The translations under genes and the position numbers were made by a program. A DNA stretch of 61,133 nucleotides from Gemmatimonadales bacterium (GTDB lineage: Bacteria; Gemmatimonadota; Gemmatimonadetes; Gemmatimonadales; GWC2-71-9): contig DATDED010000243.1 in the NCBI GenBank assembly GCA_036523455.1, positions 1 to 61,133 on the forward strand, written 5' to 3'. Under the pieces are notes generated by a model, which did not search any database, was not told the DNA's origin, and saw nothing but the letters and a program-made list of their open reading frames with translations. Every line of letters begins with the position of its first letter. Position 1 is the stretch's first letter. This document shows, piece by piece, positions 2,370 through 53,887 of this stretch.

Positions 2370-2454
2370 GGGGGAAGAGGGAAGAGGGAAGAGGGAAGGG
2401 TAAACCACACGGGTCGAAGAAAGTCCCCTTTCCCCTTCCCTCTTCCCCCTTCCC
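2370..2454. repeat. Inverted pair of G-tract (GGGAAGR)n modules (hairpin / G-quadruplex-capable intergenic element)
   Basis: The left arm (2370-2404) is gggggaagagggaagagggaagagggaagggtaaa. The right arm (2425-2454) is cccctttccccttccctcttcccccttccc, whose reverse complement is gggaagggggaagagggaaggggaaagggg. The spacer is 20 nt. The element lies in the 142-nt gap between the ubiA-like gene and ubiX. Confidence 0.9.
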
Positions 2455-9771: not shown

Positions 9772-10977
9772 CTACCCGGCGGCGAGTGCCTGGTCCAGAT
9801 CCTCGATCAGATCCTCGATATCCTCGATTCCCACCGAGAGCCGGATCAGGCTGTCGGTGAGCCCCATCTTCTGCCGCAGCTCCGGCGGGACGCTGGCATG
9901 CGTCATCGACGCGGGGTGGCCGATCAGGCTCTCCACGCCGCCCAGCGACTCGGCCAGGGCGAACACCTTGGTGCGCTCCACTACCCGCCGTGCGAACGCG
10001 GGGTCACCCAGCTCGACCGAGAGCATGCCGCCGAACCCGCTCATCTGCCGGCAGGCGAGGTCGTGCTGAGGGTGGGAGGGGAGGCCCGGATAGTACACCT
10101 GCCGTACGCGCGGATTGTGCGACAGCCACTCGGCGACGCGGCGGCCGTTGGCGTCGTGCTGGCGCATGCGCAGCGGGAACGTCTTGATGCCGCGCAACGC
10201 CAGCCAGCAGTCGAACGGCCCCGGGACCGCGCCGGAGCCGTTCTGGATGAACGCCAGCCGCTCGGCCAGGTCGTCGCGCGGCGTCACCAGCATCCCGCCC
10301 ACCATGTCGCTGTGGCCGTTCAGATACTTGGTGGTCGAATGGAGCACGAGATCGGCGCCGAACTCGAGCGGGCGCTGGAAGCAGGGCGTGGCGAACGTGT
10401 TGTCCACGACGAGCAGCGCGCCGGCGCGCTTGGCGATCTCCGCCGTGGCGGCGAGATCGCACAGCCGCATCATCGGGTTGGTCGGGGTCTCGGCGTAGAT
10501 CAGCTTCGTGCGCGGGGTCACGGCGGCGGCGACCGCGTCCGTGTCTCCCCCGTCCACGAACGTGAACGTCAGCCCGAGCCGGGACCAGATGAGCGTCATC
10601 TGGCGGTGGGTGCCGCCGTACACGTTCTCACCGCTCACGACGTGGTCGCCCGCGGAGAGCAGCTTCATCAGCGCGTCCACCGCGGCGAGGCCGGAGCCGT
10701 AGGCGAGCCCGTGCCGCCCCCCCTCGAGGGCGGCCACGCTGCGCTCCAGGGCCTCGCGCGTCGGGTTGCGGGTACGGCCGTACTCGTAGCCCTTGTGACG
10801 GCCCAGCCCCTCCTGCACGTAGGTCGAGGTCTGGTAGATAGGCGTCATCACCGCCCCGGCGAGCGGGTCGGGCACCATCCCGCCATGCACGGCCCGCGTG
10901 CCCATCCGGCGCCGTAAATCCGCGTCAAACGCCTTGGTCATGGCCGGGAACGTACCGACGCCTTTCGCCGCGAGCAA
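9772..10977 (-). CDS. PLP-dependent Cys/Met-metabolism enzyme (cystathionine gamma-synthase / beta-lyase family)
   Basis: The 401-aa ORF has the PLP-lysine segment HSTTKYLNGHSDMVGG and family-typical TRNPTREALE. The start is uncertain: an alternative ATG at 10941 gives MTKAFDAD.... Confidence 0.8.
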   Translation of the reverse strand: MLAAKGVGTFPAMTKAFDADLRRRMGTRAVHGGMVPDPLAGAVMTPIYQTSTYVQEGLGRHKGYEYGRTRNPTREALERSVAALEGGRHGLAYGSGLAAVDALMKLLSAGDHVVSGENVYGGTHRQMTLIWSRLGLTFTFVDGGDTDAVAAAVTPRTKLIYAETPTNPMMRLCDLAATAEIAKRAGALLVVDNTFATPCFQRPLEFGADLVLHSTTKYLNGHSDMVGGMLVTPRDDLAERLAFIQNGSGAVPGPFDCWLALRGIKTFPLRMRQHDANGRRVAEWLSHNPRVRQVYYPGLPSHPQHDLACRQMSGFGGMLSVELGDPAFARRVVERTKVFALAESLGGVESLIGHPASMTHASVPPELRQKMGLTDSLIRLSVGIEDIEDLIEDLDQALAAG

Positions 10978-12103: not shown

Positions 12104-13534
12104 ATGCCCGACACCTTGATGGTCGGCGTCTCCGGAATCCGCGGCATCGTCGGCAAGGACCTGACTCCCGAGCTCGTCGCCCGTTACGCGGCCGCCTTCG
12201 GCGCGTGGGCCCGCACGGGGGGCGCGCGCCGTCCCCGGATCGTCCTGGGCCGCGACGCGCGGACGTCGGGCCCCATGTTCATGCAGGCGGCATCATCCGG
12301 ACTCGTGTCGGTCGGATGCGATGTGATCGACATCGGACTCACCACCACGCCCTCCGCGCAGCTCGCGGTGGAGCATCATCGCGCCGCGGGGGGGATCATC
12401 CTCACCGCGAGTCACAACCCGATCGAGTGGAACGCCCTCAAGTTCGTGGGCCCCGACGGCGTCTTCATCGACGAGACAGCGGGGGCGCAGGTACGTGCCC
12501 TGGTCGCCGAGGGACCGATTCCCCGCGCCGACCATGGCAACCTCGGCGCCGTCATCACCGACGGAGAGGCGTTGAAGCGGCACCTGGCCGCGGTAGTGCG
12601 GCTGGCCGGCGTGGACACGGCGCGGGTACGCAAGCGCCACTTCCGGGTCGCGCTCGACACCTGCCGCGGAGCGGGCGGAGCCATCATGCCGGCCTTGCTC
12701 GAGCGGCTCGGCTGCGAGGTCGCCGGCATCAATCTCGAGACCGACGGCCGGTTCCCGCGGCCTCCCGAGCCCATCCCGGAGCAGCTCGGGGCGCTGGGGG
12801 CCGTGGTGCAGCGGGTGCAGGCGGATATCGGCATGGCGGTGGACCCCGATGTGGACCGTCTCGCCCTCGTAGACGAGCAGGGGGAGCCGATCGGAGAGGA
12901 CTACACGCTGGCGTTCGCGGTCAGAGCGGTGCTGGGAGGAAACGGGAAGGGGGAAGGGGGAAGAGGGAAGGGTAAAGGCGCTGCCGGTGACACGACGCCC
13001 GAGTCGCGGGTCGTGGTGTGCAACCTCTCGACCAGTCTCGTCGTGGAAGACGCGGCGCGCGACTGCGGCGCCCTGGTCGTCCGGGCGCCGGTGGGTGAAG
13101 CCCACGTGGCGCGGGCGATGATCGAGCGTGGCGCGCCGATCGGGGGGGAGGGAAACGGCGGCGTGATGTACCCGGCGCTCCACGTTGGACGCGACGCGCC
13201 GGTCGGAGCCGCGCTGATCCTCACGCTCCTGGCGCGGGACGGGCGCCGCGTGAGCGAGCTGGTGGCGGCCTCGCCGCGGTACGCGATCGTGAAGGACAAG
13301 GTGCCGCGGAGCCGGACGTCGGGACTGACACAGGTCTACGCGGCCCTGCGGGCGCGGTTCGCGGATGCGACGGTGGACGAGCGCGACGGACTGCGGCTGG
13401 GCTGGCGCGACCGCTGGCTGCACGTGCGGCCCTCGAACACCGAGCCGATCATCCGGTTGATCGCGGAGGCGCCGACGGCGGCGGAAGCGCGGCAGCTGGT
13501 GGACGTGGGACGAAACCTATGTGCGGAATCGTAG
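12104..13534 (+). CDS. Alpha-D-phosphohexomutase (phosphoglucosamine mutase / phosphomannomutase type) carrying an in-frame repeat insertion
   Basis: The product has GVSGIRG, the phosphoserine loop TASHNP and the Mg loop DPDVDR. It overlaps glmS by 16 nt, which suggests a GlmM-like role. The segment NGKGEGGRGKGKG is encoded by the G-tract repeat at 12944-12979. Confidence 0.8.
   Translation: MPDTLMVGVSGIRGIVGKDLTPELVARYAAAFGAWARTGGARRPRIVLGRDARTSGPMFMQAASSGLVSVGCDVIDIGLTTTPSAQLAVEHHRAAGGIILTASHNPIEWNALKFVGPDGVFIDETAGAQVRALVAEGPIPRADHGNLGAVITDGEALKRHLAAVVRLAGVDTARVRKRHFRVALDTCRGAGGAIMPALLERLGCEVAGINLETDGRFPRPPEPIPEQLGALGAVVQRVQADIGMAVDPDVDRLALVDEQGEPIGEDYTLAFAVRAVLGGNGKGEGGRGKGKGAAGDTTPESRVVVCNLSTSLVVEDAARDCGALVVRAPVGEAHVARAMIERGAPIGGEGNGGVMYPALHVGRDAPVGAALILTLLARDGRRVSELVAASPRYAIVKDKVPRSRTSGLTQVYAALRARFADATVDERDGLRLGWRDRWLHVRPSNTEPIIRLIAEAPTAAEARQLVDVGRNLCAES
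12944..12979 (+). repeat. Single copy of the (GGGAAGR)n G-tract module, inside coding sequence
   Basis: The sequence gggaagggggaagggggaagagggaagggtaaagg shares gggaagggggaagagggaaggg (22/22), then aaagg after one T/G difference, with the reverse complement of 2425-2454. It also shares the ...gagggaagggtaaa end of 2370-2404. Confidence 0.9.
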
Positions 13535-32462: not shown

Positions 32463-33109
32463 TCAGGCCGCCCGGGCGAGCGCCGCGATCGCCTCGCGCA
32501 GCTCGGGCATCCCGTGCCCCGTCTGCGCGCTCGTCACGACGATCTGATCCTCGTCTAGGGCGAGCGCCTGGCGCAGCGCGCTCTCCCGCTGCTGCTGTTG
32601 CGCGCGCGAGAGCTTGTCGGCCTTGGTCACGGCCACGAGCACCCGCGTCTCCGCGCCGGCCAGGAGATCCTGCATGGCGCGGTCTCCCTCGGAAGGCTCG
32701 TGGCGGATGTCGAGCAGCCACACGACTCCGGACAGCCGGGGGCGGTGCAGCACGTGGCGGACGATCCTGGAGAACGCGGCGAGGTCGGACTTGGAGGCGC
32801 GGGCGTAGCCGTAGCCGGGGAGATCCAGGAGATAGAAAGCGTGGTCGGTGGTTTGTGGTCGGTGGTCGGCGGGCTCCCCGGGCAGGTCCCCTCCGGCCAC
32901 CGACAACCGACCACTGACCACGTAGACGTTCAGCGCGCGGGTCTTTCCGGGCGTGGCGGAGACCCTGGCGATCCGTTGGCCGACAAGGGCGTTGATCAGA
33001 CTGGATTTCCCGACGTTGGAGCGGCCGGCGAAGGCGATTTCGGGAAGCGGTGGATCGAGCGGCGCGTCGGCGCGGGGGAAGGAGCCGACGAAGCGGGGCA
33101 GGGAGGCGG

Positions 33110-33113
<4 letters not shown>
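32463..33113 (-). CDS. engB: Ribosome-biogenesis GTPase EngB/YihA with in-frame palindromic insertion; inferred CTG start
   Basis: The same frame encodes G1 [18 protein letters not shown]2 PGKT, G3 DLPGYGYA and G4 TKADK. The ORF track starts at 32921, which is downstream of G1. No ATG/GTG/TTG lies upstream in frame. CTG at 33113-33111 forms a CTGA overlap with the clpX stop. Confidence 0.75.
32841..32921. repeat. 81-nt palindromic element inside engB
   Basis: The left arm is gtggtcggtggtttgtggtcggtggtcggc. The reverse complement of the right arm (32895-32921) is gtggtcagtggtcggttgtcggtggcc, which is near-identical. A GC-rich centre separates the arms. Confidence 0.85.
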
Positions 33114-34360
<1,247 letters not shown>

Positions 34361-52856: not shown

Positions 52857-53770
52857 GGCCGCCCCTTGCGCAGCTGCTCGTACAGCTCGTCGAACAACGC
52901 CGCGCCACGCGCGAGGCGATCCACGTCGGCTGCATTGGCCCGGGCGATGCCGTCCAGCACGAGCTGCAAACCCGGTGTCTCGTCCCGCCCGAACTTGTCG
53001 TCCTTGCAGTCGATGTCGTGCACCATCTCACTGATCGCCTTGAGCGCCGGGTCGCGCAGGGCGAAGTGTCGACACAGTGTCTCGAAGGTGCAAAGATCGC
53101 CGTCATGCGTGAACTCCCCCTCGAACATGTCGAACCGGATCTCCCCGGGCTGGGGGTGATACTGCCTGGGAGCGACGAAGCGGAACTGCGCTTCGGGATC
53201 GACGAAGCGTCGGATCAGCCACGCGCTAGCGATCCGGTCTACGTAGAGTCCGGCGCGCGTGACCCAGACGCGGGCCTTCGGCCTGTCGGTGAGGGTGGAA
53301 GTCATCGGGGCTCCGGGTTGGGAGGTGCGGGTCGCCAGGGCCTCGAGCGCCGCCTCGGCGTCGGCACGCCCCTCGGCCGCAAATCGGTCCAGCGCATGGA
53401 CTTCGTGGAGGCGGCGGGTGAGGCGGTCCAGGTCCGCCGTACTGCCGCGGCTGGCTGCCACGATGGCCTCGTAGCCGTCGGTGCACGCGGCTCGAATCGC
53501 CTGTACCAGCCGCCGGTCGGTATCCGCGTCGAGAAACGTGGACTCGCACAGCGCCGCCTCCCCGCCGTCGGTCGCGATCTCGCGCGCCAACCATTCGAAA
53601 TCCTCGCGTGCCTCATCGCCCGCCGGCAGCGCATACACGGTGCGTTTGAGTGGCACGGCGCCGAGACGCTGGAGGCGGCGACGGACTTTTACGCGAAGGT
53701 AGTCCGGCTTGAGCGGGAGTTGGTGAATGAGCAGCAGCCAACGCTGTGTTGATTCTAGTGTATCTGACAT
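52853..53770 (-). CDS. ChrB-domain (chromate-resistance-associated) protein
   Basis: The N-terminus WLLLIHQLPLKPDYLRVKVRRRLQRLGAVPLKRTVYALP is characteristic of ChrB. The product is 305 aa. Confidence 0.7.
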   Translation of the reverse strand: MSDTLESTQRWLLLIHQLPLKPDYLRVKVRRRLQRLGAVPLKRTVYALPAGDEAREDFEWLAREIATDGGEAALCESTFLDADTDRRLVQAIRAACTDGYEAIVAASRGSTADLDRLTRRLHEVHALDRFAAEGRADAEAALEALATRTSQPGAPMTSTLTDRPKARVWVTRAGLYVDRIASAWLIRRFVDPEAQFRFVAPRQYHPQPGEIRFDMFEGEFTHDGDLCTFETLCRHFALRDPALKAISEMVHDIDCKDDKFGRDETPGLQLVLDGIARANAADVDRLARGAALFDELYEQLRKGRP

Positions 53771-53771
53771 G

Positions 53772-53787
53772 TGATACTATTGTATCA
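53772..53787. promoter_or_regulatory. Inverted repeat TGATAC-TATT-GTATCA in the A/T-rich divergent promoter region
   Basis: I read it directly from the sequence. GTATCTGAC also occurs twice (about 53760 and 53832). The region lies between the chrB-like start (53770) and the next plus-strand gene (53888). Confidence 0.3.
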
Positions 53788-53887
53788 AACATGCCAGCAA
53801 GCGCAAGGGCTTGCCGCTTGCCTATACACAGGGTATCTGACCCGGGTGGGTTTTTCGCCCCTCCCCAACGTCTCAGGAGTCTGCCCG

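Follow-up and report, generated by a model that had tools for sequence, protein, structure and literature searches.

In a 61,133-nt contig of a Gemmatimonadales metagenome-assembled genome (DATDED010000243.1; this whole stretch, the 61 kb of genome that was analyzed, is referred to as the window), the essential GTPase gene engB contains an 83-nt imperfect palindrome that lies in frame at 32840-32922. Our results indicate that the palindrome occupies a long-lived, hypervariable hairpin site that extends over a whole Gemmatimonadales clade, a main point that was missed in an earlier note on this DNA. We give about an even chance to the reading that the element is a self-maintaining passenger, a translated hairpin belonging to a class of inverted heptamer repeats that resemble the STRR repeats of other bacteria. 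The host gene and the parts of the hairpin are the following.

32463..33113, minus strand: engB (YsxC/YihA-type GTPase), 216 amino acids (aa), from translation, MMR_HSR1 and the 1SUL match
32889..32922, minus strand: 5' arm of the hairpin in mRNA sense, GTGGTCA GTGGTCG GTTGTCG GTGGCCG, from folding and Tandem Repeats Finder (TRF)
32874..32888, minus strand: central spacer (apical region) of the hairpin, from inverted-repeat and fold analysis
32840..32873, minus strand: 3' arm of the hairpin in mRNA sense, CCGACCA CCGACCA CAAACCA CCGACCAC, from folding and TRF

The two arms (32840-32873 and 32889-32922) are 34 nt each, 82% complementary and 15 nt apart, and each of them codes for 10 residues and is built of four tandem heptamers (TRF period 7, 4.1 copies, at 32841-32869 and 32893-32921). 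The sense RNA folds with -56.2 kcal/mol, compared to -35.9 +/- 3.6 kcal/mol for 200 dinucleotide shuffles (z = -5.6), none of which folded as well, and the same element folded as DNA gave a z of -5.3. When the whole 61 kb was scanned for hairpins, a score of 15 or more was found only for this hairpin and for one at 2372-2454, and the score of 19 for the engB hairpin was reached in 0 of 24 first-order Markov simulations of the window. The sense and antisense strands were compared for an asymmetry caused by G-U pairs, but the antisense strand was as stable or more stable and gave no strand-specific RNA signal. Rfam at a permissive threshold returned no family, only microRNA and lncRNA matches far below threshold, and no copies of GTGGTCG beyond those expected by chance were found elsewhere in the 61-kb window.

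The reading frame from 33113 to 32463 on the minus strand is open without a stop across the hairpin and gives 216 residues, the same length as the NCBI product on this contig (HEY6060420.1). The G1 (GxxxxGKS), G2 (Thr), G3 (DxPGYG) and G4 (TKADK) motifs are all present in order, and the product matches MMR_HSR1 (PF01926; 9.6e-18) and seven EngB chains in the PDB, the best of which is Bacillus subtilis YsxC (1SUL; E = 7e-32). The earlier note had placed an in-frame palindromic element within engB, after the G2 threonine and ahead of the G3 motif; translation bears this out, and the two arm strings and the 27-residue translation given there are exact. Its 27 codons are correct for the span of the palindrome but not for the insertion, since from PG[KR]T to DLPGYGY there are 49 aa in the window, compared to 25-26 aa in about 24 insert-free genomes, mostly of other Gemmatimonadota, which makes the net insertion 23 codons. 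The same distance is 30-32 aa in four Acidobacteriota, and the turn is short in the ancestral state. The outermost unit, GTGGTC, also serves as the native Val-Val codons of strand beta2.

The structure of YsxC could be aligned to residues 20-70 and 93-209 of the window EngB, leaving residues 71-92 unmatched. An AlphaFold2 model based on 89 full-length sequences, which replaced a poor model from a shallow, N-terminally truncated alignment, has a mean predicted local distance difference test score (pLDDT) of 87.6 and a predicted template modeling score of 0.85 and places beta2 at residues 61-66, beta3 at 93-97 and coil at 67-92, with pLDDT values below 50 at residues 72-78 and 84-88. At the tip of the beta2-beta3 hairpin, the insert thus forms a loop of low confidence that is predicted to be disordered. 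No insertion sites other than this turn were seen in the relatives compared.

These relatives were the 120 closest EngB proteins, of which all named ones are from Gemmatimonadota and 114 have a recognizable G3 motif. Across the 114, the turn varies from 25 to 56 aa and the peptides are very different. When engB alleles were read as DNA, 12 of 12 were palindromic at the turn site, with at least seven different sequences, and the palindromic alleles all fold far better than shuffles. The alleles at the engB site were as follows.

Window, L081, L082 and L083: GTGGTCR / GTGGCCR units
L001: GGGAGYC units
L002: GTGGGRC units
L205 and L210: GGGGAGC units
L206 and L212: GGGGAGT units
L207 (L208 is an identical second contig), at ~10200-10260: perfect palindrome of the repetitive extragenic palindromic (REP)-like type, GTAGGGGCGCAGCA / TGCTGCGCCCCTAC
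L209: palindrome CCCGGGGTCAGCCG...CGGCTGACCCCGGG

The REP-like allele of L207 and L208 comes from another lineage and is translated as VGAQHAAPL in the same turn of EngB. At the peptide level, a palindrome test of low power, which misses the REP-like and CCCGGGG types even though both are palindromes at the DNA level, gave 71 of 98 inserts whose score was reached by at most 10 of 200 shuffles. Covariation in the four GTGGTCR alleles amounted to three compensatory pairs, no better than in shuffles of these too few and too similar sequences; structure is argued instead from the finding that unrelated sequences are all palindromic. The palindrome is kept at the site in lineages where EngB is only ~60% identical. 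A scan of a genome collection returned, among the matches listed, mostly distant engB genes, with L001 and L002 as the only ones from the clade.

That close relatives might encode the loop in non-palindromic DNA, or that the palindrome might be an artefact of assembly, had been raised in the earlier note as grounds for doubt. The loops of the close relatives are palindromic too. The window is a metagenome-assembled contig, in which a fold-back chimera, for example, could create a palindrome, but the same or a homologous palindrome is present in independent assemblies from other samples (P0004 from Logan and L081-L084 from JGI and NCBI), the reading frame is unbroken and relatives have colinear flanks; the probability that we attach to an artefact is negligible.

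The distribution of the alleles indicates turnover at the site. When the insert was removed before a tree of EngB was built, the insert types were interleaved on the tree, and the comparison of the window with its near-identical relative L210 revealed the following block.

32820..32996, minus strand: divergent, putatively recombinant block relative to L210, made up of the hairpin with ~74 nt 5' of it and ~20 nt 3' of it

On both sides of this ~177-nt block the two loci are 98-100% identical, while the block itself holds different hairpins and diverged flanking codons, which looks like the signature of homologous exchange of engB alleles. In each of the pairs compared, divergence along the locus was highest around the hairpin. 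In comparisons of window positions 32820-32996 with L081, L082, L083, L205 and L210, the ~100 nt upstream of the hairpin were 70-88% identical with raised synonymous divergence, compared to 92-100% identity in the flanks of that stretch. This local divergence around the palindrome points to mosaic recombination or local hypermutation.

Changes in the arrays themselves were also seen. The empty allele L211 and the filled allele L212 differ by the clean presence or absence of 78 nt, with proteins that are 93% identical outside the gap, and at the boundary (...ATC GGG AGT / GCC TTT...) one GGGAGT unit was left behind. No target-site duplication was found in this pair, only 1 nt of microhomology or ambiguity. 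Partial deletions of the insert are present in P0099 and P0013, and duplications of 7 aa (21 nt, three units) in P0029 and P0070, seven residues being the only array step that preserves the frame since it equals 21 nt and three units. Three of the unit types are one base apart (GGGGAGC, GGGGAGT and GGGGAGA, the last known from peptides only), which would fit the drift of a single array.

Hairpins of this type are not confined to engB. An exact scan of metagenome contigs for GTGGYCRGTGG...CCACYGRCCAC gave at least 120 loci in source genomes of 44-74% G+C, with engB not represented among the first 80. A typical copy is 64-83 nt long with arms of ~26 nt around a ~19-nt spacer without conservation, and across the copies only the unit is held in common, not the spacer or the termini. 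Nearly all are intergenic, and 2 of the at least 120 were confirmed inside genes, which speaks against the genome-wide class of coding-tolerated repeats proposed in the earlier note. One of the two, at 1676-1762 in L092, is in frame in hisF and codes for RQWPVTSGQWP...LTTDHRPPTTA; the other, a GTGGYCA-type hairpin at 7157-7236 in L147, is in frame in the C-terminal subdomain of the adenylation (A) domain of a nonribosomal peptide synthetase (NRPS) from a genome of 70% G+C and has no T-rich tail. TGRCCAC accounts for 5 of 19 units in the coding copies, compared to 246 of 337 units in the remaining 118 copies from metagenomes (the alleles being partly related), and the 3' arm units of the engB hairpin likewise steer clear of the TGA-bearing form TGACCAC. 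Units bearing TGA are thus depleted in coding copies, as would be expected from a constraint on the frame. A literature search on the GTGGTCA unit found nothing relevant.

The loop of HisF between IVVAIDAK and WEVFTHGG varies from 21 to 59 residues among 120 homologues (P0242-P0361), and the hypervariable form occurs in genomes of Deltaproteobacteria, Nitrospinae and Nitrospirae. It contains several different heptamer-palindrome peptides as well as a deletion footprint (RQWPV/TTALY), and the low-power peptide palindrome test flagged 16 of 74 hisF inserts. Since this loop is itself hypervariable in a comparable way, the behavior is not peculiar to engB. The hisF copy also bears on whether the EngB insert could be an ordinary lineage-specific loop with a role at the protein level, for example in ribosome contact, and with the palindromic DNA incidental. 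Many lineages retain the loop in frame, and the right-arm peptide DHRPxTTDH is seen repeatedly in several EngB relatives, but the same peptide recurs in hisF, which has that unit in an identical reading frame, and the peptides at the engB site share only what reverse-complementary DNA imposes. With the loop predicted to be disordered and loop-free alleles in existence, we find a protein-level role very improbable.

Further hairpins with arms of tandem 7-, 8- or 10-nt units, each with a unit of its own, were observed at 10644-10703 in L001, 1407-1485 in L002, 10606-10710 in L207, 4313-4398 and 392-463 in L206 and 7231-7394 in L015. Several of these lie directly after the stop codon of engB or clpX.

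Under the passenger reading, the element is one member of a class of tandem-unit hairpins, in which two arrays of about four heptamers are inverted about a 10- to 30-nt spacer, and it sits in a surface turn where EngB tolerates extra residues without disturbance of the GTPase fold. The hairpin is translated straight through as a loop of ~23 residues, predicted to be disordered, and would persist as a passenger and not for a protein function. Its loss would be slow because only deletions of an exact multiple of three are viable in engB. Slippage would homogenize and resize the heptamer arrays, and intrastrand template switching between the arms would copy changes from one arm to the other, so that the sequence drifts while the palindrome survives. 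Selection would then act mainly on the open reading frame, through lengths in multiples of three and avoidance of TGA-bearing units, and alleles would in addition be swapped between lineages by homologous recombination. Slippage and template switching as the means by which the palindrome is maintained, as well as the lack of a function, are inferred. Several points weigh against this reading. Slippage and template switching are known from quasipalindrome mutagenesis and were not observed here, and the survival of the palindrome down to ~60% EngB identity could equally mean that the hairpin is selected. The evidence on copy number in the genome, other GTGGTCG copies included, comes from 61 kb. 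In addition, a pure passenger does not foresee the enrichment of T-ending codons that is found directly after the hairpin, at the following positions.

33110..34360, minus strand: clpX, directly upstream of engB, its stop codon overlapping the engB CTG with no intergenic spacer
32823..32839, minus strand: U-rich tail immediately after the 3' arm in the mRNA, GCT TTC TAT CTC CTG GAT (coding for A F Y L L D in strand beta3)

The tail in the window, CUUUCUAUC, has 5 U in 9 nt, and that of L206 reads UAUUUUUUA. The third position is T in 42% of the five codons after the hairpin, compared to 7% of the remaining codons of the gene and 6% of the corresponding codons in insert-free outgroups, and the positions of these rare codons are conserved across alleles. 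The T-richness is reached through codons that differ between alleles (TTC TAT, TTT TAC, TAT TTT and TAT TTT TTA). These genomes make hardly any use of TTT or TAT: in five genes of the window, TTT occurs once and TTC 36 times, and TAT 3 times and TAC 25 times. Counts near the hairpin and elsewhere in engB and clpX, taken from the same ten loci, are these.

Phe, TTT:TTC: 10:1 near the hairpin, 4:96 elsewhere in engB and clpX
Tyr, TAT:TAC: 5:5 near the hairpin, 5:78 elsewhere in engB and clpX
Asp, GAT:GAC: 7:3 near the hairpin, 43:252 elsewhere in engB and clpX

The junction of clpX and engB is tight in these genomes. In the window, L081, L082, L083 and L210 there is no in-frame ATG, GTG or TTG for engB between the upstream stop and the palindrome, and the sole candidate start in this sub-clade is a CTG (33113-33111) that overlaps the clpX stop (CTGA). 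Gene callers truncate engB in the sub-clade; the NCBI call has 216 aa. In L206, L207, L209 and L002, an ATG or GTG lies about 20 codons farther upstream, 67 nt inside clpX, and throughout the insert-bearing clade the clpX stop is 77-94 nt from the G1 motif.

These features allow for a different explanation, a serious rival but in our view less probable, in which selection keeps the hairpin as an RNA element, either a leaky intrinsic terminator or a site of pausing, that lies ~190 nt past the clpX stop in the first permissive loop of engB. A ribosome following closely would block the stem and cause read-through, while an untranslated transcript would stop, and the expression of engB and downstream genes would be lower than that of clpP-clpX and would depend on ongoing translation. 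This role could be filled by any stable hairpin, which would explain why the sequence turns over while the structure is conserved, even to lineages with ~60% identical EngB. The stable GC-rich stem (-56.2 kcal/mol, z = -5.6) followed by a U-rich tract has the form of a terminator, and the T-richness comes from codons that differ between alleles. The two genes abut or overlap, which leaves no space for a terminator between clpX and engB, and the engB of the window sub-clade has no canonical start codon. Relatives in the Gemmatimonadaceae that do have an intergenic spacer carry classical hairpin-plus-U terminators directly after clpX (L017, L018 and L014), and in L015 the spacer after clpX holds a large heptamer-containing palindrome.

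Other observations fit a terminator poorly. Hairpin-free natural alleles occur in this clade (L211 and, among the proteins, P0115 and P0106, for example), and an equally tight junction of clpX and engB is found in the outgroups L003, L004, L007 and L024, which have no hairpin. The REP-like allele of L207 is without a U tract, and in several alleles the U run is interrupted or begins 3-8 nt past the stem, a spacing that is poor for a canonical terminator; a simple terminator scan did not call the site, owing to its rules for loop and stem. The hisF site behaves alike outside the context of a clpX-engB operon, the NRPS copy has no T tract, and the flanks of 101 metagenomic hairpins displayed only a mild enrichment in A/T. 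The alleles share ancestry, so the codon counts are not independent, and the T enrichment could be a mutational footprint, for example of C-to-T deamination on the non-template strand at a pause induced by the hairpin. The more specific proposal that the hairpin is a translated attenuator in a permissive loop, which lets transcription pass from clpX into engB only with a ribosome following, is one that we hold still more tentatively. A stem made of heptamer units could be regrown by slippage after damage, and its structure would thereby be kept while its sequence was free to change. If this were true, the same might apply within hisF, and it would amount to a general bacterial way of placing terminators or pause sites inside essential genes.

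The diversity at the site could also be the result of repeated independent insertions of palindromes moved by a transposase, similar to REPs or to MITEs (transposable elements of the miniature inverted-repeat type), that target this spot or existing hairpins. Palindromes that look unrelated, including a perfect REP-like GTAG...CTAC, share one site, closely related genomes hold different types, and GTGGTCA-type hairpins are dispersed in many metagenomic genomes. Yet the L211/L212 pair has no target-site duplication and a microhomology of 1 nt only, the copies share the unit but no conserved spacer or termini, and no other insertion site is seen in EngB. The swap between the window and L210 takes in ~74 nt of diverged engB, as would homologous exchange and not a fresh insertion, and three unit types one base apart fit the drift of one array. 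We therefore consider repeated transposition unlikely.

Returning to the passenger reading and its repeat class, the second high-scoring hairpin of the window is a case in point.

2372..2454, no strand assigned: intergenic hairpin of four GGGAAGA units, 25 nt and four CCCTTCC units, from the hairpin scan and TRF

This hairpin and that in engB both consist of four heptamers, a spacer and four complementary heptamers and therefore belong to one class, so that the earlier description of the engB element as a second, unrelated repeat family in the window does not hold. It lies between a UbiA-like prenyltransferase gene (end at 2366) and a UbiX-like gene, and neither of its sides has a T tract. At 12944-12972, four GGGAAGG units in tandem lie in frame in a phosphoglucosamine-mutase-like gene and code for GKGEGGRGKGKG, a K/G/R-rich loop. 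We rejected it as a half-element or palindrome insertion, since it has no complementary arm and the loop is variable in length in all 120 relatives. The tally for the 61 kb is thus one GTGGTCG hairpin (coding), one GGGAAGA hairpin (intergenic) and one GGGAAGG array. Separately, two AT-rich 22-nt direct repeats, TGAT(A/T)CTA(G/T)TGTATC..., were observed at 53750-53793 in this contig of 70% G+C; each holds an inverted repeat GATAC-N4-GTATC, and the pair resembles a tandem operator.

Heptameric repeats have been described in Xanthomonas (GGGAATC) and in Nostoc and Calothrix (GGGGAYT; STRR) by Rehm et al. (2015; PMC4692102), who found that arrays of four units are markedly preferred and that a Xanthomonas genome has 70-75 convergent pairs. 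These repeats are dispersed, mostly intergenic and under-represented in open reading frames, two arrays often converge to give a possible stem-loop, and their function is unknown (PMC4692102). The engB element has the same tandem 7-nt units at about four per array, the same convergent complementary arrays close together and the same potential for a stem-loop. It differs in its location inside an essential gene and in that many units coexist in these genomes, also with periods of 8 and 10. The units of Xanthomonas and Nostoc contain tracts of three to four G and were proposed to form G-quadruplexes; such a tract is present in the GGGAAGA units at 2372-2454, unlike in the engB hairpin, where GTGGTCG holds GG only.

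The classical in-frame coding palindromes are the Rickettsia palindromic elements (RPEs; Ogata et al. 2000, 2002, as summarized in PMC10969869), which are like the engB element in being palindromic repeat DNA found in frame in housekeeping genes and translated at positions compatible with the protein fold. RPEs are ~100-150 bp with a conserved family consensus and a conserved encoded peptide and have no tandem heptamers, whereas for the engB hairpin there is no second GTGGTCG copy in the window and only the unit is shared across loci. The complete turnover of sequence at one site while the palindrome stays sets it apart from RPEs as these are described, and its host is a free-living, high-G+C member of the Gemmatimonadales. 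REP, REPIN and BIME elements are likewise short, dispersed, imperfect palindromes, mostly extragenic, and a REP-like GTAG...CTAC is found at the engB site elsewhere, but REPs are near-identical copies of 20-40 nt tied to a RAYT transposase, and their arms are not tandem arrays. Bacterial MITEs such as Correia and ERIC are small, non-autonomous, hairpin-forming repeats that occasionally give in-frame gene fusions; in contrast to the engB site, with no duplication and unconserved spacers, they have terminal inverted repeats, a conserved core and target-site duplications. Intrinsic terminators and attenuators resemble the engB element in that a GC-rich stem precedes a stretch rich in U in the sense strand, and relatives have classical terminators after clpX, but the engB element is translated inside an essential open reading frame, with a stem of ~30 bp that has internal mismatches and a U tract that is interrupted and partly spaced from it.

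One practical consequence is that gene callers predict truncated versions of these engB genes and that the inserts make the proteins look more divergent than they are. Coding palindromes have been described as a peculiarity of Rickettsia, and we now find them in free-living soil bacteria and built of tandem heptamers. One codon-scale site in an essential gene has held a hairpin clade-wide while its sequence was replaced, resized, deleted and exchanged, with comparable behavior of hisF in other phyla, which shows that repeat hairpins are able to persist in housekeeping genes over long periods. The U-rich codon tract offers a testable hypothesis of a translation-gated terminator or pause inside an open reading frame. 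The site is a natural system for asking whether palindromes survive in genes through self-correction or through selection, how new loop sequence enters conserved proteins and what role heptamer repeats may have.

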